Of a DNA stretch of 36,549 nucleotides, positions 1,397 to 30,439 are shown in pieces. The first letter of the stretch is position 1, and every line of letters starts with the position of its first letter. Location of the stretch: the NCBI GenBank assembly GCA_033551855.1, contig JAWSUI010000037.1, forward strand, positions 1-36,549, given 5' to 3'. The notes beneath the pieces are model-generated. The model had not been told where the DNA came from. It did no database searches and saw only the letters and a program-made list of their open reading frames with translations. The position numbers were made by a program, and so were the translations under genes. The stretch comes from Deferrisomatales bacterium. Lineage in GTDB: Bacteria; Desulfobacterota; Deferrisomatia; Deferrisomatales; JACRMM01.

Positions 1397-1607
1397 GCCC
1401 GGATTCCACGATCACATTCTCCGGCGGGGCCGGGAAGCCATGGAGCGCAGCCCCGCACCGGCTGGACCGACCCGCCGAGTCCGGCGTAAACGAGTGAAAC
1501 CCGGCGCGCCGGGTCCCGCCGGGACACCTCCTCGCATGGCCGCGGATTGCGGGGCGGAGCCGAGGGGCTCCCCAGCTCCGCCCTGCTCCGAGACGGGGAA
1601 TCCGGGC
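1397..1607 (+). repeat. Copy A of dispersed TIR-bounded intergenic element (MITE-like or structured RNA)
   Basis: TIR gcccggattccacg (1397-1410) / cggggaatccgggc (1594-1607), 13/14 match; core acgagtgaaacccggc...gccgggacacc aligns over ~150 nt with copies B and C. Confidence 0.8.
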
Positions 1608-1684
1608 GGCGGCGCCTGCTTTTCCCCACCTTGCAATTATGTTACCGTAGATGGTGCAAATTTCCCTGCTTCGGAGGCCCGGTC

Positions 1685-4435
1685 GTGCAAAGGAAACTTC
1701 CCCTCTTCGCGCTGGCGCTGGCCGTTCTCCTCTTCGGTCTGGTGCAGGCGTTTCCCGGGTCGACCGGCTCGAGCGGCCCGGCTGCCTTCCATTCACTCGG
1801 GGACCCGTTTCCCCGGATCGTCCACCAGGTCTTCTACCACGTCGAGAAGAAATACGTGGCGCCGGAGCGCGCGTCTCCGAGAGGGCTCGTCGAAGGGGCG
1901 CTGCGCGCCCTGGAGACGCAGTATCCGGAGGTGCTGGTGGACTTCGACGAGGCGGCGGGCGCCGCCCGGGTGCGGGTCGATGAGGCGGAAAGGACCTTCG
2001 ACCTCTCTCCTGCGGCACGCTTCAGTGTCGCGGCCGACGTGCTCAACACCGCGCTCCCCTTCGTCAGCACCCATCTCGGGCCGGGGGTGGACCGAAGCGA
2101 GCTGTACTACGTCGCCCTCAACGGCGCGCTCGGGGTTCTCGACCCCCACTCCAACGCCCTGAGCCCCAAGCACTTCAGGGAGTTCATGATCGGAACGCGG
2201 GGCAGCTTCGGGGGCATCGGTTTCGTCTTCGGAATCCGCGACGGTGACATGACCATCATCACCCCCATCGAAGGGACTCCGGCGGATCGGGCCGGCCTGC
2301 GCAGCGGAGACCGGATCCTCCTGATCGACGGGGAGCCCACCATCAACATGCCCGTCGACGTCGCGGCGAACAAGATGCGGGGGGAGCCCGGAACCCAGGT
2401 GGTCCTCACGATCTCCAGGGAGCAGTGGCCCGAGCCCCGAGAGATCCCCTTCACTCGGGAGGTCATCCACGTTGAAAGCGTCGAGAGCTACGTGCTGGGG
2501 GGAGCCCAGGAGCCGGTGCTCTACGTGAAGGTGAAGAACTTCCAGAAGGACACCACGGACGAGCTTCGCAAGGCCGTGAAGGCTGCGGAGGCGGCCAATC
2601 CCGACCTCAGGGGGATCGTCCTCGACCTCCGGAACAACCCAGGGGGGCTCCTGGAGCAGGCCGTGAAGCTCTCCGACGGCTTCCTGGATTCCGGTGTGAT
2701 CGTCTCCACCAGGGGCCCCGAGAAGGACGCGAATTCCCGGGCCGAAGCCAAACGGGGTAACCTGATTACCCGCAGGCCGGTGGTGGTGCTGGTGAACCAG
2801 GGAAGCGCCTCGGCCTCGGAGATTGTCACCGGCGCCCTCCGGGAGTCCCGGGCCCTGGTGATCGGGCAGAAGACCTTCGGCAAGGGTTCCGTCCAGAAGC
2901 TCTATCCACTCACGGACGGCGGAGCCCTCAAGCTCACCGTCGCGCAGTACCTGACCCCCGGAGACGTCTCGATCCAGTCGATCGGGGTGCAGCCCGATAT
3001 TTCCGTGTACCCCGTCCAGGCCGAGACGGGCAGGGCGCGCATCGGTCCTGCGCCGAGCCACGTGGAGGAGGCGGATTTCGAGAACGCGTTCCGGGAGTGG
3101 GGAAACTCCGCCCACTTCCAGGGCGCCGAGGTCCCGTACTACGAGGCCGCCGGGGCCGAGGAAGGCGAGCGAAGCTTTGCGGAGTTGAGCCGGGAGGAAA
3201 AACTGGCCCGGCTCGAGACGGATTTCCCCTTGCGGCTCGCCCGGCGGGTCCTGTCCCGTACAAAGCCTGCGGAGCTGCCGCGGACGCGGGCCGCCTTGCT
3301 CGAGGCGGCCGCGCCGGTGCTCGAGCAGGTGCGGGCCGAGGAGGATCGCAGGATCTCCGCCGCCCTGCAGGACCTGGGTGTGGACTGGACCCAGGGCCCG
3401 GCGGTACCGGAGGGCGAGCTCGTGGTGGAGGCAGGGCCCGAGGTGCGCCTCGAAGGAGGTGGGGAGGGCGAGGTGACATTGTCCGTCCGGAACACCGGGG
3501 TGAGCCCGGCGTACCGGGTGTGGGGGCGGAGCGAGTCGGACAACCCTCTGCTGCGGAATCTCGATTTCGTCTTCGGCACGGTGGGCCCGGGGGAGACACG
3601 CTCCTGGTCGGGCCGGATCTCCGTGCCCCGGGGAGCCCTGGACCGTTGGGACACCATGAGGCTGGCTCTCCGGCAGGGGGAGGGGGCAGCGGCGGGTGAG
3701 GGACTGGCAAAGGTTCGGATGGCGGCGGCGCCCCGGCCGGAGTTTGCCTACGTCTATGAGCTGTCGGACGAGAATGTCGAGGATCGCTCCCGGTCCGGTG
3801 ACGGAATCCTGGAGGAGGGAGAGCGGGCCCGGCTCCTGGTGCGGGTCATCAACCGCGGCGGGGTAGCAAGCCAAGCGGTGGAAGTGAACATCCGGGGAGA
3901 CGAGAAGGAGCAGCTCTACCTGGAGACGGCGCGCCGCCGCATCGAGGGGCTGGAAGCCGGTGCGTCCGCCGAGGCTGCCATGGTGTTTCGCCTGGTGAAG
4001 GCGGACGACGAGGGGAAGGTTTCGGTCATCCTGAGTCTTGCGGATCGCGAGTACGGGAGTTTCTTCTCCGACACCTTGGTGTTCGAGGCGGGCCGGCCGT
4101 ACCAGGCCCGGGATACACGCAAGCCGCCGGTCTTGGACTTCGAGACGGCGCCCCCTCTGCGGACCTCACAGGAGTCGGTCGTGCTCGAGATCCAGGTCAC
4201 GGACGACGAGGAGGTCAAGGAGTTCTATGCCTATCTGGGAGACAAGCAGATTGCCTACGAGCGAAACCGAGAGGGTGGGAGGAAGCTCCCGGTCCGCTTG
4301 GAGGTCTCCCTCGAAAAGGGCTCCAATCGTATCGTGCTCGCGGCCCGGGATCAGAAGGACCTGCAGACCAATCGGACGCTGTTCATCTACCGGAAGGACG
4401 GCGCCCCCGACAACCCGGGCCTGGGGATGCGGTAG
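1685..4435 (+). CDS. Long S41 (tail-specific/CtpA-like) serine peptidase, MXAN_5808-like, with PDZ domain and C-terminal beta-rich/Ig-like extensions
   Basis: Signal/anchor helix; PDZ (FGGIG..PIEGTPADRAGLRSGD); LDLRNNPGGLL, SASASEI (catalytic Ser), TFGKGSVQ (catalytic Lys); GTG 1685 after GGAGG. Confidence 0.9.
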   Translation: MQRKLPLFALALAVLLFGLVQAFPGSTGSSGPAAFHSLGDPFPRIVHQVFYHVEKKYVAPERASPRGLVEGALRALETQYPEVLVDFDEAAGAARVRVDEAERTFDLSPAARFSVAADVLNTALPFVSTHLGPGVDRSELYYVALNGALGVLDPHSNALSPKHFREFMIGTRGSFGGIGFVFGIRDGDMTIITPIEGTPADRAGLRSGDRILLIDGEPTINMPVDVAANKMRGEPGTQVVLTISREQWPEPREIPFTREVIHVESVESYVLGGAQEPVLYVKVKNFQKDTTDELRKAVKAAEAANPDLRGIVLDLRNNPGGLLEQAVKLSDGFLDSGVIVSTRGPEKDANSRAEAKRGNLITRRPVVVLVNQGSASASEIVTGALRESRALVIGQKTFGKGSVQKLYPLTDGGALKLTVAQYLTPGDVSIQSIGVQPDISVYPVQAETGRARIGPAPSHVEEADFENAFREWGNSAHFQGAEVPYYEAAGAEEGERSFAELSREEKLARLETDFPLRLARRVLSRTKPAELPRTRAALLEAAAPVLEQVRAEEDRRISAALQDLGVDWTQGPAVPEGELVVEAGPEVRLEGGGEGEVTLSVRNTGVSPAYRVWGRSESDNPLLRNLDFVFGTVGPGETRSWSGRISVPRGALDRWDTMRLALRQGEGAAAGEGLAKVRMAAAPRPEFAYVYELSDENVEDRSRSGDGILEEGERARLLVRVINRGGVASQAVEVNIRGDEKEQLYLETARRRIEGLEAGASAEAAMVFRLVKADDEGKVSVILSLADREYGSFFSDTLVFEAGRPYQARDTRKPPVLDFETAPPLRTSQESVVLEIQVTDDEEVKEFYAYLGDKQIAYERNREGGRKLPVRLEVSLEKGSNRIVLAARDQKDLQTNRTLFIYRKDGAPDNPGLGMR

Positions 4436-4456
4436 AACGGCGCTGAAACGTCCACG

Positions 4457-5347
4457 ATGACAGGGCCTGCCATCTCACGGTCGGGGTTTGTAGGCCTGCT
4501 GGGCCGGCCGAACGTGGGCAAGTCCACCCTGCTCAACCGCCTCCTCGGCCAAAAGATCGCCATCGCGAGCTCCAAGCCCCAGACCACGCGGAACCGGCTG
4601 GCGGGGGTCCTCAATCGGGGACCGGTGCAGATGGTGTTCTTCGACACTCCCGGGGTTCACGAAAGGGCCAAGCTCATCAACCGGTTCATGGTCCGGGAGG
4701 CGCTGTCCTGCCTCCCCGACGTGGATGCCGTGGTCTTGCTGGTGGACGCCGCCGAGGGGGTGCGAGGCGACGACCGAGCCTTGGCGGCCCGGCTGCGGTC
4801 CTCTCCCGTGCCCGTCTTGTTGGCCGTCAACAAGGTGGACATCGGCACGGCGACCACGGAAGTCTTTGTGGACCTGCTCCCGTTTCACTCGTGTCATCGC
4901 CTCTCGGCCGTTACCGGTGAGGGTGTGGAGGGACTCCTGGAGACGCTGGCAGCCCTGCTGCCGGAAGGACCCGAGTATTATCCCGAGGATATGCTCACGG
5001 ACCGCAGCGAGCGCTTCATCGCCCAGGAGTTCATCCGGGAGAAGGTCTTCGAGTTGATGGGCGAGGAGATCCCCTACAGCGCGGCGGTCACGGTGGAGAG
5101 CTGGGAGGAGAGGGACCACGGCCTGGTGGTCGTCCACGCGACGATCCACGTGGAGCGCGAGAGTCAGAAGGGGATGGTGATCGGGAAGGGTGGGGGGCTG
5201 ATCCGGGAGGTGGGGCGCCGGGCTCGGCTGGATCTGGAGGCACTGCTGGGGGTGCGGGTGTTCCTGGACTTGCACGTGAGCGTGGACAAGAACTGGACCA
5301 AGGATCCCCGAGGCCTGCGGCGCTACGGGTACGAGGTGGAGCCGTGA
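4457..5347 (+). CDS. era: GTPase Era
   Basis: GRPNVGKSTLLN, KPQTTR, DTPG, NKVD; KH domain EEIPYS...SQKGMVIGKGG. Confidence 0.97.
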   Translation: MTGPAISRSGFVGLLGRPNVGKSTLLNRLLGQKIAIASSKPQTTRNRLAGVLNRGPVQMVFFDTPGVHERAKLINRFMVREALSCLPDVDAVVLLVDAAEGVRGDDRALAARLRSSPVPVLLAVNKVDIGTATTEVFVDLLPFHSCHRLSAVTGEGVEGLLETLAALLPEGPEYYPEDMLTDRSERFIAQEFIREKVFELMGEEIPYSAAVTVESWEERDHGLVVVHATIHVERESQKGMVIGKGGGLIREVGRRARLDLEALLGVRVFLDLHVSVDKNWTKDPRGLRRYGYEVEP

Positions 5348-6684
5348 TCGTCGCCATCGTGGGCCGGCCCAACGTGGGCAAGTCCACCCTCTTCAACCGC
5401 CTCGTCGGACGGCGTCAGGCGATCGTGGAAGACGTGCCCGGAGTGACGCGGGACCGACATTACGCCGAGGTGGAGTGGGGCCCCCGCCGCTTTCACTTGG
5501 TGGATACGGGGGGGCTCGAGACGGATGCGGGGGACGAGCTCATCACCCTCACCAGTCGACAGGCCCGTTACGCCGTGGAGGAGGCCGACCTCATCCTGTT
5601 CGTGGCGGACGTGCGCCAGGGGCTGCTGCCCGCCGACCGGGATATCGGCCGCTACCTGCGGCAGCGGTCCAAGGACGTGATCCTCGTGGTGAACAAGGTG
5701 GACGGCCCCACCACGGAGTCCGCCGCCCTTGAGTTCCACGACACGGGGTTCCCGGACGTCATCCCGGTCTCGGCGGAGCACGGCCGCGGGGTGGGGGAGC
5801 TGGTCGGCGCCGTGGAGGAGCGGGTCCCGGTCTCCGCGCCCCGTCCCCACGCCGAGGACGAGGCCGTGCGGGTGGCTGTGCTCGGCCGGCCCAACGTAGG
5901 CAAGAGCTCCCTCGTCAACCGCCTCCTCGGGGAGGAGCGCCTCGCCGTCAGTGCCGCGGCCGGAACCACCCGGGATCCCATCGACACCCAGGTCCGCGCC
6001 TTCGGCCGCGACTACGTGCTCATCGACACCGCGGGCATCCGCCGCAAGACGCGGGTGGAGGCGGGTGCGGAGCGGTGGAGCGCGCTCCGCGCCATCCGCG
6101 CCATCGACCGTGCCCACGTGTGCCTGATCCTGATCGACGCCACCGAGGGGTTCACCGACCAGGATGCACGGATACTCAACCTGGCCCAGAAGGGGGGACG
6201 GGGGGCCGTGCTCGTGTTCAACAAGTGGGACGCGGCGGCCAAGGACGCGAAGACCTTCGACCGCGCGGCCAAGGAGTTGCGGGCCCGGCTCGGGCCCCAC
6301 GGCCACGTGCCCATCCTGAGCCTGTCGGCACTGACGGGCCAACGTGTTCCCAAGGTCTTCGAGGCAGTGCAACGGGTGCACGCCGAATGGGTCAAGCGGG
6401 TGCCCACCTCCCAGGTGAACGCCTTCCTCGAGGCGGCTCTGCGGGAGCTGGCCCCCCCCGTCGTCGGGGGCAAGCGCACCCGGATCTACTACATGACTCA
6501 GGTGACCACGGCCCCCCCCCGGTTTGCCGCCTTCGCCAGCCACGGGGCCGGTGTCCCTGTGTCCTACGAGCGGTTCCTGGTGAATCGGCTCCGGAATGTC
6601 TTCGGGTTCGAGGGGGTTCCCCTCACGATTCGTTTTCGCAGCAGGTCTCGGCCGGGGGACGGGGCGGGGGGCGAGGCCCGGTAG
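5344..6684 (+). CDS. der: Ribosome biogenesis GTPase Der (EngA)
   Basis: Two tandem G domains (GRPNVGKST/DTGG/NKVD and GRPNVGKSS/DTAG/NKWD) plus KH-like end (FGFEGVP); GTGA overlap with era. Confidence 0.97.
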   Translation: MIVAIVGRPNVGKSTLFNRLVGRRQAIVEDVPGVTRDRHYAEVEWGPRRFHLVDTGGLETDAGDELITLTSRQARYAVEEADLILFVADVRQGLLPADRDIGRYLRQRSKDVILVVNKVDGPTTESAALEFHDTGFPDVIPVSAEHGRGVGELVGAVEERVPVSAPRPHAEDEAVRVAVLGRPNVGKSSLVNRLLGEERLAVSAAAGTTRDPIDTQVRAFGRDYVLIDTAGIRRKTRVEAGAERWSALRAIRAIDRAHVCLILIDATEGFTDQDARILNLAQKGGRGAVLVFNKWDAAAKDAKTFDRAAKELRARLGPHGHVPILSLSALTGQRVPKVFEAVQRVHAEWVKRVPTSQVNAFLEAALRELAPPVVGGKRTRIYYMTQVTTAPPRFAAFASHGAGVPVSYERFLVNRLRNVFGFEGVPLTIRFRSRSRPGDGAGGEAR

Positions 6685-6754
6685 GAGGACGGCGGCCGCG
6701 GCCCCGGAAGGCCTGCCCCGGCGCGAGGTGTGCGATCCGACAGAAGGACATCGG

Positions 6755-7954
6755 GTGAGCGAGTGCGATGCCGTGCCGTCGGTGACGGTGCAGGAGCTCC
6801 GAGAACGTGCGGCCCGGTTCCAGGTGCACCTCGCTGCCGAGGGTCTGGCCGGGGCGGTCCTGGTGCAGAACGTGGACCGCTACTACTTCTCGGGAACCAT
6901 GCAGGCCGGGTATGTGGTGGTCCCGGTGGAGGGGGATCCCCTCGTCCTCGTGCGGCGGGATCCCGACCGCGCCGGCCGGGAGAGCCCCCTGCCGGTGCAG
7001 GCCCTCGGAAGCTTGCGGGACCTGGCCGGTCGGATCCGAGCGTCCCTGGGCGAGCTCCCATCCCCCGTGGGCGTGGAGGAGGACGTGCTTCCGGCGACCC
7101 AACGAAACCGCCTGGAGGCTCTCCTTGCCGGGGTCGAGCTCCGGGACGCCTCCCGGGCGATCCAGCGGACCCGGGCCGTGAAGAGCCCCTGGGAGGTGGA
7201 GCGCATTCGGGAGGCCGCCCGGGCGGTAGCGGAAGCGGTGGAGACGGTTCCCCGCTACCTCTTTCCCGGGGTGTCCGAGCTGGAGCTCTCGGCCCGCGTG
7301 GAGTGCGAGCTTCGGCTGCGGGGTCACGGAGGCCTGGTGAGGATGAGAGGGTTCAACCAGGAGCTCTTCTTCGGACACGTCATGGCGGGGGCGGCCGCCG
7401 CGCAGCCGTCCTTTCTGGATGCTCCCACCGGAGGGCTCGGGGCGGCGCCGGCCCTGGCCCAGGGGGCGAGCCGCCGGCCCATCCGGCCCGGGGACCCGGT
7501 GGTGGTGGACCTCGTGGGAAACAGCGCCGGGTACCTCTCGGACCAGACACGGATCTTCTCCTTGGGAGAGCCCCGGGAGCCCTTTGGTCGGGCCTTCGAG
7601 GCGGCTCTGGCGGTGGAGCGGGCCGTGGTCGAAGCGGCCCGGCCGGGAGTGCCGGCCTCCCGACTCTACGAGGCGGCGCTGGAGGCGGCTGCCGCCTCTC
7701 CCTTCGCCGGGCACTTCATGGGGGAGGTCCAGAGGGTGAGCTTCGTGGGGCACGGCATCGGGCTGGAGGTCGACGAGCTCCCGTTCCTGGCCCGTGGATT
7801 CGATGCGCCCCTCGAGGAAGGCATGGTGTTCGCCGTGGAGCCGAAGTTCGTGTTCGCCGGCAGGGGGGTGGTGGGGATCGAGGACACGTTTCGGGTGGGT
7901 GCCGACGGCGCGGAACGGCTCACCCCGTCGCCCCAAGTGCTCACCGTGGTGTGA
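6755..7954 (+). CDS. Xaa-Pro peptidase family (M24B) metallopeptidase
   Basis: Creatinase_N-like N-terminus, RAVKSPWEV linker, full D-D-H-E-E ligand set (VVDLVG, YLSDQTR, GHGIGL, AVEPK, GIEDT); start estimated at GTG 6755 after AAGGA. Confidence 0.9.
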   Translation: MSECDAVPSVTVQELRERAARFQVHLAAEGLAGAVLVQNVDRYYFSGTMQAGYVVVPVEGDPLVLVRRDPDRAGRESPLPVQALGSLRDLAGRIRASLGELPSPVGVEEDVLPATQRNRLEALLAGVELRDASRAIQRTRAVKSPWEVERIREAARAVAEAVETVPRYLFPGVSELELSARVECELRLRGHGGLVRMRGFNQELFFGHVMAGAAAAQPSFLDAPTGGLGAAPALAQGASRRPIRPGDPVVVDLVGNSAGYLSDQTRIFSLGEPREPFGRAFEAALAVERAVVEAARPGVPASRLYEAALEAAAASPFAGHFMGEVQRVSFVGHGIGLEVDELPFLARGFDAPLEEGMVFAVEPKFVFAGRGVVGIEDTFRVGADGAERLTPSPQVLTVV

Positions 7955-7964
7955 GGAGGGTCCC

Positions 7965-8189
7965 GTGGGCGGCTGGAGTCGGGGCAAACTTCGGCAGTGG
8001 TGGTGGATCGCGTTCGTCCTGGGCGCGTTCATGATCAACTACCCCTTCCTCCACATCTTCAACCGGCCGGTCCAGATCTTGGGGTTTCCCCTCCTCGTGG
8101 TGTACTTCTTCGTGGGTTGGGCCGGGAGCATCGCGGTCATCGGCCTCTACGTCTGGGCCCTGGGCCGAGCCCCACCCGAGGAGGAGTAG
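7965..8189 (+). CDS. Small two-helix membrane protein (74 aa), probable accessory of the SLC5/SSS-domain kinase
   Basis: GGAGG SD, two hydrophobic segments (NYPFLHIFN..ILGFPLLVVYFF..W); its stop abuts the next ATG (TAGATG). Confidence 0.75.
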   Translation: MGGWSRGKLRQWWWIAFVLGAFMINYPFLHIFNRPVQILGFPLLVVYFFVGWAGSIAVIGLYVWALGRAPPEEE

Positions 8190-11100
8190 ATGCTCCTCAC
8201 CCCCACGCGGGTTGCCTTCATCGCGTTCGGGTACCTCCTGCTCCTGTTCGGAGTGGCGTACTGGGCCGAGCGCCGGAAGGACCGGGGGCGGAGCATCATC
8301 TCCAATCCCCTCACGTACGCCTTGTCCATCGCGGTCTACTGCACGTCGTGGACGTTCTACGGCAGCGTGGGGCGGGCCGCCGTCTCGGGGTTCGAATTTC
8401 TGGCGGTCTACCTCGGTCCCACCCTCATCGCCTTTTCCTGGTGGGCCCTCCTCCGGAAGATGGTGCGGATCGCCCGCGCCAACAACGTGACGTCCCTGTC
8501 GGACTTCCTGGCGTTCCGCTACGGGAAGAGCGGAAAGATCGGGGCTCTCGTCACCGTCATGGCCGTCCTGGGCAACGCCCCCTACGTAGGCCTGCAGCTC
8601 AAGGCGGTGTCGAGCACCTTCGAGCTCCTGACCCAGGCGTCCGACGGCGGCCTCGTCCGGGCGCTCTCCCTGCCGAGTCCCTTCTACCAGGACACCGCCT
8701 TCGTGGTGGCGATCGTCCTGGCCGTGTTCGGCGGGATGTACGGCGCCCGGAGCCTCGACCCCTCGGAGCGCCACGAGGGAATGGTCGCCGCCGTCGCGCT
8801 GGAGAGCGTGGTCAAGCTGCTGGCCCTTCTCACGGTGGGGGCGTTCGTGACCTGGTGGGTCTTCGACGGCTTCGGCGACATCTTCCGGAGGATTGCCGAG
8901 CATCCGGAGCACGCCAGTCTACTGACCTTCGGCCGGGGGGAGCCGGGTGCCTTCGCAGCCTGGTTCACGCTGATCTACCTCTCGATCGCGTCGGTCATGC
9001 TCCTCCCTCGCCAGTTCCACGTGATGGTGGTGGAGAACTGCTCGGAGGAGCACATCCGTGGGGCCATGTGGCTGTTCCCGCTCTACCTGTTCCTCATCAA
9101 CATCTTCGTGGCGCCGATCGCATTCAGCGGCCTCCTGGTCTTCGGCGACGCCACCCTGGCCGACAGTTTCGTGCTGACCTTGCCCCTGCACCAGGGCTCG
9201 CAGATCCTGGCCCTGGTGGCGTTCCTTGGGGGGCTCTCTGCGGCCACGGGCATGGTGGTGGTCGCCTCGGTGACGATCGCCACCATGGTGCTCAACAACC
9301 TGGCCATGCCGATCCTTCTGTGGATCGGCTGGCCCAGGAACTTCGCTCCCTATCTGATCCACATCAAGCGGGCGGGCATCGTGGGGGTGATCCTCCTGGG
9401 GTACGGCTACTACCGCCTCCTGGGCGAGCAGTTCATGCTGGTGAACATCGGGCTCTTGAGCTTCGCGGCGGCGGCCCAGTTCGCCCCGGCCGTGATCGGG
9501 GGGCTGTACTGGCGCAACGCCACGGCCCGGGGGGCGATGGCCGGCCTCCTGCTGGGGTTCGCTTCCTGGGTGTACCTGTTCCTGGTGCCGGCCCTCGGTC
9601 AGGCCGGCTGGCTGTCCCCGCACTTCCTGGAAGAGGGGCCTCTGGGCCTGTCCCTCCTCCGCCCCACCGCCTTTCTCGGGCTCGAGGGGCTCGACCTGTG
9701 GTCCCACGGCCTGTTCTGGTCGACCTTCTTCAACGCAGGGGCTTTCATCGCCGTGAGTCTGTTCACCCGTCCTTCGGTGACGGAGGCCGAGCAGATCCCG
9801 CGCTTCGTGGACGCCCTGGGTCGGCCCGAAGGGCGCCGGGTCGGGCTCCGGATGGCCCGAGCGCCTTCCGTGGGCGAGCTCGAGGGGTTGCTGGCGAAGT
9901 TCATCGGCCCGCACCGGGCCCAGGAGAGTTTCCAGGCATTCTTCGGGGCGAGGCCGCAACAGGCGGACGCCGTCGTTTCCGACCACACCATGCTCGAGCT
10001 CAGAGCCTTCGTGGAGCGGACCCTGGCAGGTGCCGTGGGACCGGCCGCGGCGAGCCAGGTGGTGGAGCGCTACCTGGCGCTGAAGGGGACCACGTTCGAG
10101 GAGATCTTCGATGTCTTCGGCGCGGTGTCCCTCTCCCTGGAGGAGAGCCGGGAGGAGCTTCAGCGGCGGGTGGTCGAGCTCTCGGTGCTCTTCGAGGCGT
10201 CCAAGCGGGTGGCGGCGACCCTGGACGAGGGGGAGGCGATCGGGGCGGTGCTGGACCTGATCGCCGCAGAGTTCGGCCTGGAGTGCCACGGGGTCTTCCT
10301 GATGGAGGCAGGGCGGCTGCGGCCGCGCCTCACCCGGGGTTGTCTGAAGAGCTACGACCGAGCCCTCGATGGGGAGCCCGAGCCCCACTCCTACGTGGGG
10401 CAGGCGGTCCTGGGCCGGAAGACCGTCTTCCTGTCCGACGCAGCGCTGGTGGGACGGACGGTGCCCCTCGAGGTGCGCGAGACCCCGGGCCTCCGGTGCA
10501 TCATCGCCACCCCCATCGTGCACGAGGACCAGGTGCTCGGGGTGCTGGTGGCCTCGAGTCATACCCGAAAGGGGTATTTCTCGGAGAAGTTCGTGGAGGC
10601 CTTCGAGGCTCTGGCGAGCGAGCTCTCATTGGCCATCCTCAACGCCCGCCTCTACTCGGAGGTCCGTGAGCTCAACCGCACCCTCGAGGAGAAGGTGAGG
10701 GACCGCACCCGGGAGCTCGAGAGCGCCAACCGGGACCTCCAGGAACTGGACCGGCTCAAGAGCCAGTTCCTCGCCAACATGAGCCATGAGCTGCGCACCC
10801 CGATGAACTCCATCCTGGGCTACACCCAGCTCGTCCTCGACGAGGTGGATGGCCCGGTGACCGGCGAGCAGCGCAAGAGCTTGGAGCGGGTGGAGAAGAA
10901 CGCTCAGCACCTGCTGCGCCTGATCAACGACATCCTCGACCTCTCCAAGATCGAGGCCGGCCGGATGGAGTTGGAGATTCATCCCTTCGACCTGGGACAG
11001 TTGGCCGTGGAGGTGGTGGACGATCAGCGGACCCTGGCCGAGAGCAAGGGGATTGCCTGTCGCGCCGTGCTGGAGGCGGGAAACCTGCGGGTCGCCGCGG

Positions 11101-18630: not shown

Positions 18631-18634
18631 GCCG

Positions 18635-20955: not shown

Positions 20956-20984
20956 AGGATAGCACAGTCGCACGGGGCCACCAA
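20956..20984 (-). promoter_or_regulatory. Candidate sigma70 promoter of tatA
   Basis: TTGGTG-17 nt-TATCCT with TGn extension on the minus strand. Confidence 0.5.
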
Positions 20985-20995
20985 CGGCAAAGCCC

Positions 20996-21209
20996 ACCCG
21001 GAATCCCCGGCCACATGCTCGGCAAGCGGGTTCCGGGAGCCCCTGCGTTTCGCCCTGCAATCTGCGTCAATTCGAAGGGGTGTCCCGGCAAGCCCCCGCT
21101 GTGCCGGGCTTCACCCGTTGCGCCGGAGTCGGCCGGCCGGTCCCAGCAGTACGGCGCTGCTCTCCGGGGCTCCCGGACTCCGGCCCACGATGTGGTGGAG
21201 GATCCAGGT
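20996..21209 (-). repeat. Copy B of dispersed TIR-bounded intergenic element
   Basis: ~45-bp imperfect TIRs (acccggaatcc..ccacat..tccgggagcccc / ggggctcccgga..atgtgg..ggatccaggt); core acgggtgaagcccggc...gccgggacaccc on the minus strand. Confidence 0.8.
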
Positions 21210-21277
21210 CACCGGGGACCGGCGTCTCTGCCTCCCACCGGTCTCATCCCTCGGAATGACCGCGGGACACGGGCCTC

Positions 21278-22630: not shown

Positions 22631-22638
22631 GGGCTCCC

Positions 22639-23091
22639 TTACTCCTCCCCTTCCTTTTCCACCACGACCGTGACCTTGGCCTTCACGCTCCCCGGGAGCT
22701 TGAGGGTTACGGGAAATTCCCCGAGTGCCTTGATAGGGTGGTCCAAGGCCACCTGCTTCCGACTCACCGCGTACCCCTTCTGCGCCAGGGCCTCCTCGAT
22801 GTCGAGGTTGGTAACGGAGCCGAAGAGCTGCTCCTGCTCCGAGGCCTTGCGCCGGAAGACCAGACGAGTCCCGGTCAGGGCTGCTGCGAGCTCCTGCGCC
22901 TTGGACACCTCCCGCAGGCGCTTCTTCTCGAGGGCCTTCTTCTGATGCTCGAGAGCCTTCACGTTCCGGGGATCGGCGATCATGGCCATCCCCCGGGGAA
23001 CCAGGTAGTTGCGGGCGTATCCGTCCTTGACGGAGACCACGTCCCCGACGGTGCCCAGGTTCTCGACGGATTCCTTCAGAATGACCTTCAT
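22639..23091 (-). CDS. rplI: 50S ribosomal protein L9
   Basis: MKVIL...LG..GDVV.VKDGYARNYLVP; LFGSVT. Confidence 0.98.
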   Translation of the reverse strand: MKVILKESVENLGTVGDVVSVKDGYARNYLVPRGMAMIADPRNVKALEHQKKALEKKRLREVSKAQELAAALTGTRLVFRRKASEQEQLFGSVTNLDIEEALAQKGYAVSRKQVALDHPIKALGEFPVTLKLPGSVKAKVTVVVEKEGEE

Positions 23092-23122
23092 CGGAGCGCC
23101 TCCTGTGGGCCGTTTCTTGGCA

Positions 23123-24082
23123 TCAGGTGTGGAGACCTGCCTCCGGGGGCCGGGGCGACCAGCGGGCTCGAAAATCGAACCAGAGATCGAAGGCCCCCAG
23201 GGCAGCCACCACGAGCATCAGGGGAAGCTGCACGAACAGCAGGATGTAGGCTGCGACACGCAGGAACCGTGGCAGACCTCGTGCCGTGAACAGATGATGG
23301 ATCACCGCGAGCCCCTGGAGAAAGTAGATCCCCAGGGCCACCACGAACACGTTCAACGCCAACGTCCCCAGGGGGCCGCCGGCGAAGAGGGCCAGGAGAC
23401 CCGCCCCAATCAGGCCCCAGATCCAGGACTCCGGGGCTCGCCACCCGGACCAGACCCCTTCCCCGGCTTCCACGGCGCCTCTCCGGGCGAGCAGGGCGTT
23501 CACCCAGCCGGTCAGGATGGCCAGGACCGCGTAGAGGCCCGGAAACGTCAACGACAGCACGCGCCGAGTCTGCTCCGCCCAGGACTGGACGGCCAGGGCG
23601 GCCTCCGCATCGGCATCTCCCTGGAGGAGAAACGCACCGGCCTGCTCCACGGCGTGACCCAGGGCCTGATCCAGATAGTCCAGGGGACCCAGCCCCGACC
23701 CGACCGCGAGAAACCCCAGGGAAAGCCAGAAGGCCGCGATGGCCAGGAGCGCGTAGGCCCCCACGACGACCTCTGGTTTCGCCCGGGCACGCAGGGCAAG
23801 GCCCAAGGCGCACCCGCCGGCGGCAAACTGGGAGGCGTACACCGCGGTTGCCACGGGCCCCGCCAACACGTAGAGCACCGCTCCCCCGCACCCGACGGCG
23901 ACCCCGGCTCCCCGAAGCCCCTGGCCCAAGGCCGTCCGCGCCAGGGGGAGGGGGCTCACCAGGGCGCCGAGGAAGCCGAAGGGGGGCAGCCAGAGCGAGG
24001 AGACGAAGAGGCCGCCGGAGAGCAGCCCGGCCCCGGCGGCGGGCAGCCAGGGCGGGGGCCCGGGAACGGTTGGCTGACTCAC
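23123..24082 (-). CDS. DUF2232/YybS family membrane protein
   Basis: Multi-TM protein with [30 protein letters not shown]; characteristic position between rpsR and rplI. Confidence 0.88.
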
Positions 24083-24318
24083 GCCTTCAGATTGCTCGTG
24101 AAGGGCAGGAGGGCGACGTTGCGGGCCCGCTTGATCTCCACCGCCAGCAGTCGCTGATGGTGGGCGCAGTTGCCGCTGATCCGGCGGGGCACGATCTTCC
24201 CCCGGTCCGAGAGGAACTGGTTCAGCACGGTCGGCTGCTTGTACGACAGCGAGACGTCCTTGTGGGTGCAAAAGCGGCAAACCTTGGGCCGCCGCTGGCG
24301 ACGAATGGGTCTGGCCAT
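24079..24318 (-). CDS. rpsR: 30S ribosomal protein S18 (zinc-binding form)
   Basis: CRFC...YK...[20 protein letters not shown]...[12 protein letters not shown]. Confidence 0.97.
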
Positions 24319-24397
24319 GTCCGGGTCTCCTTTGCTTCTCTCAGGGAGCCTGCGGGCGCCCTGGATCTGTCTCCTGCAAGGGGGCACCCCTCGGGGG

Positions 24398-24874
24398 TCA
24401 GCCCTCGTCCTCTCCGGTCTGCTCGCCGCTACCTTCCTTTTCTTCGCCGCGTTCGGCAGGGGTCGGGGCCACCGTGGGGGTCGGGGCCACCGTGGGGGTC
24501 GGGGCCACCGTGGGGGTCGCCGTCACCTGCTCGGGCGCGATCTCCACCGGCTCCGGCAAGGCGTTGGGGTCGATGGCGTCCGCCAGCTTCAATGTCTGGA
24601 ACTTCACCACGGTGTCGAGGAGGTTGAGCCGGCGGTCGAGCTCGCTGGCCACCCGGGGTATGCCCGCATACTCGAGGATGAGATAGTAGCCCTTGCGGCG
24701 CCCCTTGAGCTCGAAGGCCAGGTCTCGCAGGCCCCATCGCTCCGTCTTGAGGACACGGCCCTCGTTCCCGGTGATGATCTCCCGAACCTTTTGGATCATG
24801 TCCTCGGTGCCTTCGACTCCCAGCTCGGGGTCGAAGATCATCAAGGTTTCGTACCGCCTCCAGATCTCGGCCAT
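24398..24874 (-). CDS. rpsF: 30S ribosomal protein S6 with extended C-terminal tail
   Basis: [34 protein letters not shown]. Confidence 0.95.
24459..24519. repeat. Perfect 18-bp tandem repeat (~3.4 copies) in rpsF
   Basis: ggggtcggggccaccgtg x3 plus ggggtcg; encodes (PTVAPT)3. Confidence 0.95.
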
Positions 24875-24930
24875 GCTGTTCTCCTCTCGGGTTGGCAGCC
24901 CCTGGCCGGGCCAGGAGCAAGGAGAGGCGG
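24875..24930 (-). ncRNA. S6:S18-binding rpsF leader (cis-regulatory RNA)
   Basis: Minus strand CUCCUUG, then a 9-bp hairpin (gcuccuggc/gccaggggc), then ugccaac-CCG-AGAGGAG. CUCCU can pair with the SD and the CCR lies in the internal loop, matching the known rpsF leader architecture. Confidence 0.75.
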
Positions 24931-24958
24931 CCCCTGCGGCCGCCGGTGTGAACCGTGC

Positions 24959-24987
24959 CTTATACAGGATCGCCGGTCGGGGTTCAA
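24959..24987 (-). promoter_or_regulatory. Sigma70 promoter of the rpsF operon
   Basis: TTGAAC (24987-24982)-17 nt-TATAAG (24964-24959). Confidence 0.7.
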
Positions 24988-25032
24988 GACGCAGGACAGA
25001 CGCAGGACGTAGTTCGGTGTTCCTGCGCGTCC

Positions 25033-26331
25033 TCACAGATCTCCCATCACGGAGAGCACCTGGGCCTTGGCCAGCATGTAGTCGCGCAGCGAGCGGGCGT
25101 GGTCCGTTCGGGCCACGGTGAGGGCCAGCTGGGCATCGGATACGTCGAGAAGGATGGCCACCCCGTAGCGGTACGAGGTCTCGGCAAGCTCCAGCGCCTT
25201 CTCCGCCTGCTCGATGTTGAGGCTCGACGCGGGGATGATCTCGGAGGCCTCGGCCAACGCGTCCAGGGCGACCTTTGCCTCGAGGGTGATCTCCTCCCGG
25301 AGCTGGGAGGCCGCGAGGTCCACGTCGCGCAGCTGGCTGCGGGCCTGGGCCACCAGGCCACGGGTCCTCCAGCCGTCGAAGAGGGGGAAACGCAGGGTCA
25401 GGCCCGCGCCCCAGCGCTCGCGATCGGTGTCGAGGCGGTCGACGTGCCGCGACGCGAAGCCGTACTCGGCGTCGAGATCGATCCCCGGCTTGTCCTCGGC
25501 CCGCGCGATCTGGAGGTTTCTCTCCGAGACCTCCCGGGCCGCTTGCAGCGCGGCCAACTCGGGGCGCCGCGCCACGGCCCGGTCCACGACCTCCTCCAGC
25601 GTGAGCGTCGCCAGCGGAACGTACTCCAGGGAGCCATCGGCCTCCAGCGGCTCGGTTTGCTCCCGCGCCATCAGGTTGTTCAGTCGGGACCGGGCTTGTC
25701 GAACCCGGTTGCGTGCCTGGATCACCGGGGTGCGGGCGTTGGCCACATCCACTCGCGCCCGGATCACTTCGAGCTCGTTCACCACCCCCGCCTCGAAGCG
25801 CTTCTGGGCGACGTCGAGAACCCGCTCCCGCTGTTCCAGCCGCTCTTCCGCCACCTCCACCAGGCGCTGGCTCAACAGCAGCTCATAGAAGGCATCGTGC
25901 ACTTGGATCGTGACCACCCGCTCCGCGCCGGCCAGCTCCTCCCGGGATTGCCTCAGGGCGGCCTCCGCCGCGCGGACGGCCGCGGAAACCCTCCCCCAGC
26001 TGAACACGTTCTGGCGCAGGGTGGTCCGCACGGCGTAGTTGTCGGTCACCTCCGGCCGTATCAGGGACGAGAACTCGCTGTCGCGCACGCTCTCGTCGTA
26101 GCTGCGGCGGTAGCTCCCCTCGAGCCCCACCTGGGGGTAAACCTGGCTCTTGATCTCCTGGATCTGTCCCCCCTGGGCCGCCAGGCGCTCCCGGGCGCGC
26201 AGGACGTCGTGGTTGCGGGTCAGGGCAAGGGCCACCGCCTGGTCCACGTTGAGACGCGCCTCCTCCTGGCCCCTCGCGGGGGAGCCCAGGACTACGAGGG
26301 CGCAGAGGAATGCGAGCCGGAGTCGGTGCAT
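25033..26331 (-). CDS. TolC-family outer membrane efflux protein
   Basis: Signal peptide MHRLRLAFLCALVVLGSPARG; two OEP repeats (AVALAL..N, RFEAG...LEV, RRPEL, FPLFDG, YRYG...LDV). Confidence 0.9.
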   Translation of the reverse strand: MHRLRLAFLCALVVLGSPARGQEEARLNVDQAVALALTRNHDVLRARERLAAQGGQIQEIKSQVYPQVGLEGSYRRSYDESVRDSEFSSLIRPEVTDNYAVRTTLRQNVFSWGRVSAAVRAAEAALRQSREELAGAERVVTIQVHDAFYELLLSQRLVEVAEERLEQRERVLDVAQKRFEAGVVNELEVIRARVDVANARTPVIQARNRVRQARSRLNNLMAREQTEPLEADGSLEYVPLATLTLEEVVDRAVARRPELAALQAAREVSERNLQIARAEDKPGIDLDAEYGFASRHVDRLDTDRERWGAGLTLRFPLFDGWRTRGLVAQARSQLRDVDLAASQLREEITLEAKVALDALAEASEIIPASSLNIEQAEKALELAETSYRYGVAILLDVSDAQLALTVARTDHARSLRDYMLAKAQVLSVMGDL

Positions 26332-26417
26332 GGGGCTCTCCCCTGGGCGGCCGCGCGGGCACTGCCGGCCGGCGGGCAAAGAGAGTTTGCGGGACGGGGC
26401 CGGCGGCAGGACAGGCG

Positions 26418-27557
26418 TCACGGTGCCCGCCCGTGCCGGGGTAGCCGGCGCAGCTCCTCCAGGACGGTGTCGATCTCCTGGGCGGTCGTCTCCCTGCCGA
26501 GGCTCCAGCGCACCGCCCCGGCCGCGCGGCCGGGTTCGACCCCCATGGCCTGGAGCACGTGGGAGACGTGAATCCGCCCGGAGTGGCAGGCCGAGCCGGT
26601 GGAGGCCGCCACGCCCGGCAGACCCGCCAGGACCTCGCTGCCGAGGCGCCCCAGAAAGGAGACGTGCAGGGTGTTGGGCAGCACCGCGGACGTGCACCCG
26701 TTCCGGACGACCCGATCGCCGAAGAGCTCCTGGAGCCCGACCCAGAACCGGTCCCGGAGCTCCCGGGTCCGAGGCATCCCGAGGTCGCCTCCGGCCAGGG
26801 AGCAGGCGGCCCCCAGGCCGGCCGCCAGGAACGCGCTCTCCGTCCCGGCCCGCCGGCCCCCTTCGTGGCCGGCACCGTGGATCAGGGGGTGCAGGGGGGT
26901 CCCCTCCCGGACGTAGAGGGCACCTACTCCCTTGGGGGCACACAGCTTGTGGCCCGCGAGGGAGAGCAGGTCGACTCCGAGCTCGTCCACCCGGGAAGGG
27001 ATCTTCCCCACCGACTGGGCCGCGTCGGTGTGCAGGAGCACTCCGGCCTCTCGGCAGTACCGGGCGATCTCCGCCAGGGGCTGCACCGTCCCCACCTCGT
27101 TGTTGGCGTGCATGACGCTCACGAGCACCGTGCGGGGTCCGAGGGACCGCCGCACGTCCTCCGGGTCCACTCTCCCGCCGGCGTCCACCGGCACCCGGGT
27201 CACCCGCGCCCCCAGAGCCTCGAGCCACCGGCAGGGCTCCAGCACGGCGAGATGCTCGACGGCGGTGGTCACCAGGTGGTCCCCCCGCTCACGCAGGGCG
27301 AACCACGCGCCCTTGAGGGCGGCGTTGTTGGCCTCGCTCCCGCCGCTGGTGAGCACCACCTCCCCCGGCGTGCAGCCCAGGAGGTCCGCCACCCGACCCC
27401 TGCCCGCCTCCAAGGCCTCCCGCGCAAGCACGCCGGCCCAGTGAGCGCTCGACGGGTTCCCGAACCCGTCGCGGAGGAGGGGTTCCATGGCCCGGAGGGC
27501 CTCGGGCGCCACGGGGGTGGACGCGTTGTAGTCGAGATAGATGCGGCGTTCCGCCAT
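26418..27557 (-). CDS. Cysteine desulfurase (group I, IscS/NifS-like)
   Basis: IYLDYNAST, FGNPSS, TSGGSEANN, MHANNEVG, HTDAAQ, AGHK (PLP Lys), STGSACHS (catalytic Cys). Confidence 0.93.
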   Translation of the reverse strand: MAERRIYLDYNASTPVAPEALRAMEPLLRDGFGNPSSAHWAGVLAREALEAGRGRVADLLGCTPGEVVLTSGGSEANNAALKGAWFALRERGDHLVTTAVEHLAVLEPCRWLEALGARVTRVPVDAGGRVDPEDVRRSLGPRTVLVSVMHANNEVGTVQPLAEIARYCREAGVLLHTDAAQSVGKIPSRVDELGVDLLSLAGHKLCAPKGVGALYVREGTPLHPLIHGAGHEGGRRAGTESAFLAAGLGAACSLAGGDLGMPRTRELRDRFWVGLQELFGDRVVRNGCTSAVLPNTLHVSFLGRLGSEVLAGLPGVAASTGSACHSGRIHVSHVLQAMGVEPGRAAGAVRWSLGRETTAQEIDTVLEELRRLPRHGRAP

Positions 27558-27571
27558 CGCTTCGCTCCCGG

Positions 27572-28018
27572 TCACGCGTCCCGGCTGCGGGGCTCCCCCA
27601 GCCGTTCGATGTTGACGCCGGCCAGCGCCTTGACGGGGCAGGCGAGCTCGCACTGGCCGCACGCGGCGCACTTCTCCGCCGTGAACCGCACCTCCATGGT
27701 GCGGTGGTCCACCGCCAGCGCGCCGGTGCGGCACACCGCGGTGCAGGCCCCGCAGTGAACGCATCGCTCCTCGTCACGGCCGATGTTGTCGGCGATCAGT
27801 GTCACCTCGACCCCGGCCTGCTCCAGGTAGGCCACACCCCCGGCCACCCGCTCCGGGCCTCCCCGGAGCTCCAGGATCAGTCGCCCCTCGAGCCGGGGGA
27901 AGATCTTCGCCTCCAGGATGTTGAAGACCAGGTCGAACTCCCGGGCCAGGCGATAGATCACGGGCTGATACATCACGTCGGGCTTGAAGACCAGGAGGAC
28001 GTTCGTCGAGATCTCCAT
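27572..28018 (-). CDS. NIL domain-2x[4Fe-4S] ferredoxin (MA1822/MJ0099-like)
   Basis: NIL domain (QPVIYRLAREFDLVFNILEAKI) plus CVHCGACTAVC and CAACGQCELACP. Confidence 0.92.
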   Translation of the reverse strand: MEISTNVLLVFKPDVMYQPVIYRLAREFDLVFNILEAKIFPRLEGRLILELRGGPERVAGGVAYLEQAGVEVTLIADNIGRDEERCVHCGACTAVCRTGALAVDHRTMEVRFTAEKCAACGQCELACPVKALAGVNIERLGEPRSRDA

Positions 28019-28073
28019 GGACACTCCCTTCCCCCCGGCCGTCCTGCGTCCGCCTTTCGGCGGCGGGCGAACG

Positions 28074-28916
28074 TCAACTGCGCAGCGCCACGAGCTCCAC
28101 CTCCCCGACGGCGGCCAGCCGGTCCCCCAGCACCGCGAAGGCCCCCCGCACGCCGGGGACCGTCAGGGCCCACTCCACCGCTGCCGCCAGATTCCCCGGC
28201 TCCCGGACGCGATTGGCGACGGCGGTAGCCACCGCGTCCGCCAAGGCCGGGTCCGCCGCCACCGCGGTGGCGGCGTCAGCCCGGCCGTAGCTTAGGCTCG
28301 GGCCCACCGTTCCCGACGAAGTGCAGACCCCCAAGGGCGCGCTCCCCGGCGCTACCCGCAACCCGATCCGGCCGGAGAACGGAGATCCCCCGGCGAAGAG
28401 GCCGACGATCGTCTCGTCGGCGAGATCGAGAAAGACGTCCCCACCGTTCTCCACCAGGACCTCGAGCGACCAGCGGCGCAGCTCCCGTCCTACCGCCCCG
28501 GCGAGGGCTCCCGCCACCGCGGCCATGGGACCCACGCCCGCCGCCTGGCCCGCCGCGTACATGGACGCGATCACCGGCGGCAGGACCCCGCCGGGCTCCG
28601 ACAGGGGAGTCAGGGCCGTGGCGAAGGCCGGGCGGTCGGCGATGTGCGCCTCCACCTCGCGCCGGGCCCGCCGCGCAGCCTCCAGGGCTTCCGGTGAGAG
28701 GTCCCGGTCGGCTCGGAGGTAGAGATCCGTCGTCTCCACCCGCACCCGGAACGCGGTGCGCGGCCCGGCCGTCCGGGCGAAGGACCGATAGGTGCGCTCC
28801 CCCGCTCCCGGCCCGACGGGCGTCGCCGGGGGATCGACGAGGGAGCAGGTACCTCTGCCCGGCGACCCGTGACCGATGGGCCCGCCGGCCGGTCCCGTCC
28901 CCGGATCAGCGTGCAC
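28074..28916 (-). CDS. UPF0280/COG2122 ApbE-like protein (MA1715-like); start approximate
   Basis: ETTDL, VGPMAAVAGA, VENGGD, GVCTSSGTVGPSLSYGRADA, LADAVATAVAN. Confidence 0.9.
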   Translation of the reverse strand: MHADPGTGPAGGPIGHGSPGRGTCSLVDPPATPVGPGAGERTYRSFARTAGPRTAFRVRVETTDLYLRADRDLSPEALEAARRARREVEAHIADRPAFATALTPLSEPGGVLPPVIASMYAAGQAAGVGPMAAVAGALAGAVGRELRRWSLEVLVENGGDVFLDLADETIVGLFAGGSPFSGRIGLRVAPGSAPLGVCTSSGTVGPSLSYGRADAATAVAADPALADAVATAVANRVREPGNLAAAVEWALTVPGVRGAFAVLGDRLAAVGEVELVALRS

Positions 28917-30168
28917 CGTCGGCCGCCTCCCCGCTCTCCGGCCTTCGCTCGAGGCTCTCGACCCGTAGCCCCGTGCCCGTGGCGGTTCCCGCCCACGAGA
29001 CGCTGGCAAGCGGGACCTGCGGTTCCCCCAGGGTAAACCGCCCGGTGGAGATCCACTCCTTCAGGAGCTGCGCGATCTCCCGGGCCCTGGGAATGCTCGA
29101 GAGCGGCGAGGCCGGCACGTCCTTGCCCCGGACTGCGATCGTGCCCGCCTGGAGGTCTGCGTAGGTGACCTCCCCCAGGGGCTCTCCCTCGCCCTGGGGG
29201 TAGTCGCGGCCGTAGTCCACGACCGGGCACGTGATCTCCCGGTTCGAGACTCCGGTGAACCAGGCGAGCTCCTCGTGGAGCACCGGGATGGGCACGCCCA
29301 GGCCCACCATGAGGCTCGTCCCGTATCCCACCAGGCTGGCGCCCCGGAGGAAGCGGGGGTCCATCGCCTTGAGGTCCCCGGTGACCATCAGGGTTCCGGC
29401 TCCGCCGCGGGGCACGCCGCGCGCGTTGCGGGCGGCGGCCGGGGCGTGCTGGGTGCCGGCCCAGGAGATCACCCCCGGTGCGCCCCCCAGGAAGATCCGG
29501 GTGCCGGTGCCGAGGGTCCAGTAGTAGGGGTCGTTGAGCAGGGGGCTGAGCTCCCCGGCGGACGAGAACGTGGCGTTGGCCATCCGGGGCCGGAGCACGC
29601 CCATGTAGGTGTAGATGGTCCGATCCGAGAGGTTCACGGCGCAGTTGTAGTTCTGGTAGGCGTTGCGGGGGTTCACCAGGAGGGCGTTCCGGAAGTCCGC
29701 GAGCCGCATCTCGGACCGGTGCTCCCGCAGCGGGTAGCAGTCCGTGCCGTAGGACGTCGCCCGCAGGGTCACCTTCCGGCCCGCCACCAGGTCCTCGATG
29801 ACGTGGCCGCCGCCGTACGCGAAACGGCCGGGGTGGACCCGGTTGAGGGGGTCGTCCTCCGCCACCTGGGTGGCTCCCACGTAGCAGTCCACCGCGGCGA
29901 CCCCGGCGTACGCCTCCACCTCGTTCAGCCAAACCTTCGCCGCCTTCATCTTGGGCCGCGTGTGCCCGAAATTGAGGAACGCCCCGGAAGAGCACATGGT
30001 GCCGAAGGTGCCGGTGGTCACCACGTCCACCCGCCGGGCCGCCGCCTTGGCCCCCTCGGTGCCTACCACGTCGACCATCTCCTCGGCGGTGACGACCACC
30101 GCCTTGCCGGCGCGGATCTTCTCGTTGATCTCCGCTATCGTCTTCTGGACGGGGGGACGGTCGGGCAT
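28906..30168 (-). CDS. DUF39/COG1900 homocysteine biosynthesis protein (L-aspartate semialdehyde sulfurtransferase, MA1821/MJ0100-like), without CBS domains
   Basis: KTIAEINEKI..GKAVVVTAEE, VDVVTTGTFGTMCSSG, YGGGHVIEDL, YGTDCYP, NPRNAYQNY, LSPLLNDP; 420 aa. Confidence 0.92.
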   Translation of the reverse strand: MPDRPPVQKTIAEINEKIRAGKAVVVTAEEMVDVVGTEGAKAAARRVDVVTTGTFGTMCSSGAFLNFGHTRPKMKAAKVWLNEVEAYAGVAAVDCYVGATQVAEDDPLNRVHPGRFAYGGGHVIEDLVAGRKVTLRATSYGTDCYPLREHRSEMRLADFRNALLVNPRNAYQNYNCAVNLSDRTIYTYMGVLRPRMANATFSSAGELSPLLNDPYYWTLGTGTRIFLGGAPGVISWAGTQHAPAAARNARGVPRGGAGTLMVTGDLKAMDPRFLRGASLVGYGTSLMVGLGVPIPVLHEELAWFTGVSNREITCPVVDYGRDYPQGEGEPLGEVTYADLQAGTIAVRGKDVPASPLSSIPRAREIAQLLKEWISTGRFTLGEPQVPLASVSWAGTATGTGLRVESLERRPESGEAADGAR

Positions 30169-30252
30169 GGGGGTTCTCTTTCTCTTTCCTGGCGCGTCGG
30201 GGCGCCCCGAGTCTCCCCCAAGTGGGGGCCCGAGGTCCAGGGGGTCGTGTCT

Positions 30253-30439
30253 CCCAGGATTCCCCCCCTGTTCGGCGAGGGGCGTCCGGAAGCCCCGACG
30301 TTTCGCCCCGCGACCCGCGGCACGTCGAATGGGTGTCCCAGGCGCCCCGGTGCGCCGGGCTTCACCCGTCTTCGCCGACTCGGGCCCGACCGTGCAGGCT
30401 GCCTGGCCTCCGGCGCCGGGACTGGGGTACCATCCGGGC
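30253..30439 (-). repeat. Copy C of dispersed TIR-bounded intergenic element
   Basis: Minus strand acgggtgaagcccggcgc..gggacacccattcg..ccgcgggtcgcggggcgaaacgtcggggcttccgga..ggggaatcctggg aligns with A and B; the other end is decayed (atccgggc 30432-30439). Confidence 0.78.

Follow-up and report, generated by a model that had tools for sequence, protein, structure and literature searches.

We describe a dispersed element of 208 nt, present in three intergenic copies (A, B and C) in a 36,549-nt stretch of the Deferrisomatales bacterium genome (contig JAWSUI010000037.1, assembly GCA_033551855.1), hereafter called the window. We consider it to be a non-coding miniature inverted-repeat transposable element (MITE) of 208 bp, likely mobilised in trans by a DDE transposase of the IS1380 family that is predicted to choose its target by way of the -35 region of promoters, and we give this reading a probability of roughly three in four. 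The initial annotation of the window had proposed an old family of MITE or REP (repetitive extragenic palindromic) type, or else a multicopy structured RNA. The MITE part of that interpretation has held, the REP-like and structured RNA parts have not, and neither the fixed distance to -35 hexamers nor the link to an IS1380-type transposase was contained in it.

The genome to which the window belongs, G000 (4.24 Mb in 132 contigs, 69.6% G+C), was scanned with nhmmer profiles, as the initial annotation had suggested. A first profile, for which the core of the three window copies (141 nt) was used, gave 175 matches at E<=1e-5 on 66 contigs. The limits of the element were set by aligning the 63 best copies with 130-nt flanks: per-column conservation of about 90% starts and stops abruptly at both edges, delimiting a 208-nt unit that begins with CCAGAATCCACCACC and closes, in the consensus, with GGTGGATCCAGG. 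The terminal inverted repeats that had been noticed in the window are real in this alignment; they measure 12 nt (CCAGAATCCACC on the left, CCTGGATCCACC on the right), and an inner arm, GGAGTCCGGGAGCCC, recurs in inverted orientation near the opposite end. The profile of the complete unit identified 213 distinct loci at the same threshold, almost evenly divided between the strands (107 versus 106), including 78 full-length copies; the high genome-wide copy number anticipated from the window is thereby borne out. The similarity between A, B and C likewise proved to be true and far beyond chance, a repeat scan of the window independently recovering the B/C and A/B pairs. As regards size, the unit is well within what is called a MITE, lying below about 500 bp and being too short for a transposase gene.

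The full copies show a median identity of 82% to the consensus and of 72% in pairwise comparison; hence, the family is not young. It occurs in many copies in both congeners, G001 and G002, while G005, from another genus of the family, yielded one weak, partial match (model positions 28-190), which we judged to be real. The 37 remaining genomes of the search gave no match. A pattern scan of genome contigs returned one metagenome-assembled genome, which is G002, the window's own genome and near genomes possibly lying outside the set covered by that scan.

An exact duplication of 4-5 bp abuts the 208 nt in 43 of the 78 full copies (4 bp in 34, 5 bp in nine). When the right flanks were shuffled 1000 times, an average of 1.4 copies, and never more than 5, had such a duplication. 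Exact 4-bp duplications also flank 11 of 18 copies in G001 and four of eight in G002. It is because of its terminal inverted repeats and these target duplications that we class it as a MITE and not as an RNA gene or a REP element. Eight tandem arrays exist, in which the copies are spaced by 4-5 nt. Six of them (on contigs C107, C19, C2, C47, C6 and C1) have an exact further occurrence of the whole spacer or of its 4-nt core next to the array, such as CGGA in C6, a threefold CAGC in C2 and GATC in C47; in the other two (C4 and C80) the match extends to three of the four nt. The recurrence of one 4-nt spacer in tandem copies argues for repeated insertion into a single, rebuilt target.

The position of the copies with respect to promoters was studied in the right flanks of the 152 copies in which the right end is present. 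The pentamer TTGAC starts at +14 in 28 of these flanks and at +15 in 18; elsewhere in the flanks, each 80 nt long, the remaining 74 positions together hold only 19 occurrences. The pentamer has a genome-wide frequency of 0.00044 per base, and no such peak is seen in the left flanks. TTG occurs at +13 to +16 in 89 copies, as compared to 5, 9 and 3 in three control windows, and is followed at 16-18 nt by TAnnnT in 46 copies (0, 5 and 0 in the control windows). In a position matrix, C-T-T-G stands out at positions 13-16, with a weaker T/A signal at 37-42 that is the -10 box after a 17-nt spacer. The right end of the element, therefore, lies 13-14 nt upstream of the -35 box of predicted promoters of the sigma70 type. 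The congeners present the same picture, TTG being found there in 13 of 18 copies (G001) and in eight of nine (G002).

The distance to the hexamer moves with the length of the duplication. Next to a 4-bp duplication, TTG stands at +14 in 17 of 25 copies, and next to a 5-bp duplication it stands at +15 in all three copies concerned, a small number; the gap between duplication and hexamer is therefore constant at 9 nt. Both boxes lie outside the duplication and the spacers vary from copy to copy, so that the boxes belong to the target and not to the element. Orientation was assessed with genes predicted by our own crude caller, based on the G+C content of third codon positions (GC3), which defined 3306 genes in G000. 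Among the 204 copies with a called downstream gene, 182 are co-oriented with that gene and 22 are opposite to it; two of the 213 copies are inside called genes. That the copies face the downstream gene had been remarked for the window, where it is true of all three, and it is evidently a habit of the family. We infer from these patterns that insertion is aimed at promoters by the transposase.

Orthologous loci in relatives were compared for empty sites, a control proposed together with the initial annotation. In the dnaB-tatA spacer, B is present in G000 only, the site being empty in G001, G002, G003 and G004, and both G001 and G002 keep TTGGTG-17 nt-TATCCT at tatA without any element preceding it. 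In front of the S41 peptidase gene, a full copy (A) is likewise restricted to G000, none being found in G001 to G005. At this place, G002 carries a solo right end, GGCGGTGGATCCTGG, at an equal distance from the same promoter-like site, and a relic in G000 (Table 1) is similar to it. The two S41 hexamers and their 17-nt spacer are conserved in G002, G004 and G005. The promoter-like sites beside A and B are thus conserved across genera, which speaks for their function. Upstream of the HcyBio-family gene, C is found in G000, a partial copy in G001 and none in G002. Two further features were seen in these spacers: a palindrome of CGGTAT / GATACC words in the dnaB-tatA spacer of G001 (locus L096) and a run of CCCCCGA words upstream of the S41 gene in G005 (locus L103).

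Ends that start with CC and duplications of 4-5 bp, both found in the 208-nt element, are traits of the IS1380 family in ISfinder (a family to which ISEcp1 also belongs), and for this reason, transposases of that family (Pfam PF13701) were tried as its partner. PF13701 matches occur in five of 21 genomes of the order, including the congener G002, in which contig C7 specifies a C-terminal fragment of 95 amino acids (E 4.5e-8, 32.2 bits). Located 218 nt past this fragment is CAGGCGGTGGATCCTGG, which is the right end of the MITE copies of G002 (17 nt identical), followed by TGTC, 9 nt, TTGACG, 17 nt and TAAATT. When 401 genomes of the phylum were searched with the 95-aa fragment, 30 gave matches, and 21 of the 22 loci inspected have a motif of the GGAT(C/T) type, mostly GG(T/C)GGTGGATTnnGG, 100-530 nt behind the match. 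For 19 right ends (two of them, L065 and L086, doubtful as ends), at least 45 nt of flanking sequence was available; TTG occurs at +13 to +16 in 13 of the 19, several with TTGACA and TATAAT-like boxes. The full-length relatives at L067, where the gene specifies 506 amino acids, and at L072 score 104.8 and 103.9 bits with PF13701, and their right ends read GGTGGATT..GG. Judging by these sequences, both the right end and the docking next to promoters are associated with this branch of the IS1380 family.

A complete insertion sequence (IS) of 1684 bp, with ends CCTGAATCCGTGA/TCACGGATCCAGG and a PF13701 transposase of 444 amino acids, is present in G008. The IS1380 copies of G010 were set aside, having other ends, as were the three PF01609 transposases of G000 as a possible source, which have unrelated inverted repeats. 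In G000, no left and right ends are paired 0-6 kb apart except in variants with an internal insertion; a search for 12-mer ends with two mismatches was too noisy, and the open reading frames beside partial copies revealed no autonomous element. The family is probably old and now immobile in G000, because the assembly contains no IS1380 gene and the copies are so far diverged from their consensus.

Several observations weigh against the reading advanced here. The PF13701 search gave no match in G000 or G001, so that no IS1380 partner was found in either genome. The fragment in G002 falls just under the Pfam cut-off of 34.7, its N-terminal part being masked by a run of N. The agreement with IS ends concerns the right end only, the left ends of full-size IS not having been recovered, and in the taxonomically nearest IS1380 copies, those of G005 and G008, the similar end CCTGAATCCGTGA is followed by no convincing -35 box at +14. 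The promoters beside the copies are predicted from sequence; a strict consensus promoter scan found no site beside A or B, and the sites in the window match the consensus poorly, A having TTTTCC/TACCGT, B TTGGTG/TATCCT and C TGGAC, not TTGAC. The orientation counts rest on the crude GC3 caller, and the +13 to +16 window was picked after inspection of the data, to be upheld later in G001, G002 and the IS copies. Finally, 63 of the 152 copies have no TTG at +13 to +16.

This last figure also speaks for an alternative in which a MITE inserts at random and only the copies just upstream of promoters survive selection, as does the near absence of copies from called genes, which purifying selection predicts. 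We nevertheless consider this alternative unlikely. It leaves unexplained the one-base-sharp distance, with TTGAC in 46 of 152 copies at one of two adjacent positions, as well as the single orientation, the tandem reuse of the same 4-nt target and the shift in spacing with the length of the duplication. The chance is slim that the element is instead a portable promoter or regulatory cassette carrying its own -35 and -10 boxes: it does face the gene and the promoter-like site does come after it, but the duplication does not include the boxes, the spacers of 9 nt and 17 nt are not conserved in sequence from copy to copy, relatives without the element have the same promoters, and no promoter-like or terminator-like site was found inside A or B.

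A multicopy structured RNA gene or leader is very improbable, although the ends and the inner arm can pair, at three inner-arm pairs (model positions 28-34 with 175-181) both bases are changed in 17-33 of the 105 sequences, and B, folded as DNA, reaches -57.5 kcal/mol (z = -2.26). This z-score is modest, the fold being about 2.3 standard deviations better than that of shuffled sequences, and RNAalifold keeps 16 pairs over the 208 columns of an alignment of 105 copies from three species. Two inverted sites for one transposase would, moreover, co-vary alike. The Rfam search that had been recommended returned no match in the window at gathering scores and only noise at E<=1 (best sub-threshold E 0.39). 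The copies are located upstream of the promoter of the faced gene, not inside transcripts, and they have target duplications and empty sites. Least credible of all is a REP-like element, or bacterial interspersed mosaic element, moved by a Y1 transposase (REP-associated tyrosine transposase, RAYT): the genome does have 11 Y1_Tnp (PF01797) matches (e.g., C45:1787-2110 and C42:23342-25093), several in open frames of 300-360 amino acids, and the element is palindromic and intergenic, but target duplications (4-5 bp) and terminal inverted repeats (12 nt) are present, both of which REP elements, to our knowledge, lack, four of the 11 matches are on contigs without any copy, and the search for a RAYT gene associated with the same ends found no Y1 gene within 3.8 kb of any copy, the nearest being at 3.9 kb.

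For a promoter-aimed MITE, the following mechanism can be proposed. The transposase would make a staggered cut, the promoter-side edge of which would always lie 9 nt before the -35 hexamer, with the far edge 4 or 5 nt further out. The orientation would be set by the unlike ends, CCAGAAT... on the left and CCTGGAT... on the right. Because the duplication would rebuild the target, the same promoter would be open to another insertion, and a landing site that spares both the core promoter and the gene would bring a high copy number within reach.

The element resembles classical MITEs, such as the Correia elements of Neisseria and MITEAba12, in that it is small, non-coding and intergenic, has terminal inverted repeats and target duplications, occurs in many copies and would be mobilised in trans by a related IS. 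Those MITEs have short sequence targets (for example, TA for the Correia elements) and are not known to keep a fixed distance and orientation to a promoter, whereas the 208-nt element keeps both. It is a MITE ordinary in kind and notable for promoter-aimed, oriented insertion, which has so far been published for another transposase superfamily. According to PMC3942029, the TnGBS conjugative elements insert on the upstream side of sigmaA promoters, at a distance of 15-17 bp, and ISLre2 (p-MULT 3) and part of the ISKra4 group (p-MULT 4) do likewise, at 13-17 bp in a figure legend. The same paper describes insertion mostly in one orientation, with one particular end by the promoter, and proposes the asymmetry of the inverted repeats as the cause (PMC3942029; Guerillot et al. 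2014). The 208-nt element is similar in the distance of its right end from the -35 box (13-14 nt) and in its prevailing orientation (182 versus 22). It differs in that the transposases of these systems are Mutator-like (on the side of the IS256 superfamily), whereas the ends described here are linked to PF13701 (the genome was not searched for p-MULT genes), and also in its 4-5 bp duplication, its nature as a non-coding 208-bp derivative and its more than 200 copies.

Regarding the IS1380 family itself, a 5-bp duplication is listed for IS1247 in Table 2 of PMC3281130, and PMC9208149 reports that IS1380 copies are over-represented between co-directional genes. Members such as IS1247 and ISPme1 have a single DDE transposase (Pfam DDE_Tnp_1_4), unlike the geneless element described here. 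No report of promoter-aimed insertion by IS1380 was found in the full-text literature searched, a body of work that excludes most subscription journals.

The features of the window are listed in Table 1. The left and right ends of copy A read CCGGATTCCACG and GGGGAATCCGGG, and the copy is 80% identical to the genome consensus; the first hexamer of the S41 site begins at +14 from its right end. The probable relic in front of A is a weak nhmmer match, covering model positions 143-204 with 4.2 bits (E 0.006 when 908 nt were searched). Copy B is flanked by an imperfect target duplication, and the first hexamer of the tatA site begins at +13 from its right end. Of the sequencing runs listed as containing this DNA, none is of RNA; the one good DNA run, X1, is near-identical in sequence and may be the source of the DNA. 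The contigs of X1 contain no joint across B; depth is raised inside the element, owing to other copies. Copy C, upstream of the HcyBio-family gene (28909-30168, minus strand), lacks the first ~59 nt; the interval 30253-30439 originally assigned to it was overextended on the 5' side, since C starts at model position 60. In agreement with the initial annotation, which saw no transposase in the window, the three families searched (PF13701, PF01609 and PF01797) have no match on its contig.

Table 1. Copies of the 208-nt element, their flanking features and a copy of a second family in the window.
Feature	Position	Strand	Evidence
Copy of a second MITE family, not a member of the first	665..872	+	blastn matches, consensus, flanks
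Probable relic of an older copy, right ~65 nt only, ending GGCGGTGGATCGCGG, 4 nt before A	1329..1394	+	
CGGC, left target duplication of A, which also separates A from the older relic	1395..1398	.	read from sequence
Copy A, full-length 208-nt MITE	1399..1606	+	nhmmer 1400-1605, E 5e-42, model positions 2-207
Right target duplication CGGC of A	1607..1610	.	read from sequence
Promoter-like site of the S41 peptidase gene (start 1685): TTTTCC, 17 nt, TACCGT	1620..1648	+	
Promoter-like site of tatA: TTGGTG (20984-20979), 17 nt, TATCCT (20961-20956)	20956..20984	-	
Copy B, full-length (212 nt) MITE between dnaB and tatA	20997..21208	-	nhmmer 21207-21000, E 2e-45, model positions 2-205
TGGAC at +15 from the right end of C, where other copies have TTGAC	30235..30239	-	sequence
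Copy C, 5'-truncated MITE, model positions 60-208	30254..30401	-	nhmmer 30401-30255, E 5e-26, model positions 60-207

The TGGAC next to C belongs to a motif that a by-eye alignment shows to be conserved in four genomes: window positions 30170-30253 (minus strand) and the orthologous places in G001, G002 and G005 contain CTGGAC(C/T)T, ~17 nt and GGGAGACTCG. This motif, which precedes the HcyBio-family gene, does not correspond to the sigma70 consensus and may be another type of promoter or a leader signal.

A fourth, degenerate copy had been proposed at 748-943. This stretch lies, in fact, inside a repeat of ~208 nt from an unrelated family: positions 620-960 score -2.8 bits with the 208-nt profile even in a 908-nt search, and a blastn search with bases 741-872 returned more than 100 matches from a family of its own. 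This second family is dispersed and palindromic, extends from GGTTCTTCCGG to CCGGATGAxCC, counts 74 near-full copies in the genome and is flanked by A/T-rich duplications of ~8 bp, for example, CAACTTTA and TGATTTTC. It is equal to the first family in length and differs from it in its ends and in the length of its duplications.

Some further repeats were observed. Five copies of the 208-nt element in G000 (C31:10563-10683, the others on C14, C23, C47 and C3) share an insert of ~121 nt around model position 100. This sequence, too, is a dispersed repeat and has ~25 further matches elsewhere; either it is a third small element nested in the 208-nt element, or the composite has spread. The window contains a 77-nt inverted repeat (27316-27392 and 30941-31017; 81% complementary, 3.5 kb apart), held by two oppositely oriented genes that are probably paralogues. 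It also contains at least three tandem units of 18 nt, GGGGTCGGGGCCACCGTG, at 24459-24527.

For the annotation of this genome, the three window copies and the second-family repeat at 665-872 are to be masked as relics of mobile elements, not as RNA genes. Each copy of the 208-nt element flags a likely promoter in an uncultured lineage of Thermodesulfobacteriota without transcript data. If the targeting is real, an unrelated DDE family would have converged on the promoter docking of TnGBS and ISLre2, and a second system would be at hand in which to study how promoters are read, whether via the DNA, region 4 of the sigma factor or the alpha subunit. A transposase that lands at a fixed base and does no damage to the promoter would be a candidate tool for promoter tagging. 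More tentatively, this branch of IS1380 and its MITEs might find promoters via contact with RNA polymerase-sigma70 or by reading the -35 box, cutting 9 bp upstream, as a second, independent invention of the TnGBS trick. The relics could then mark about one in ten promoters, where they may have replaced the UP or activator region and, by doing so, rewired expression.

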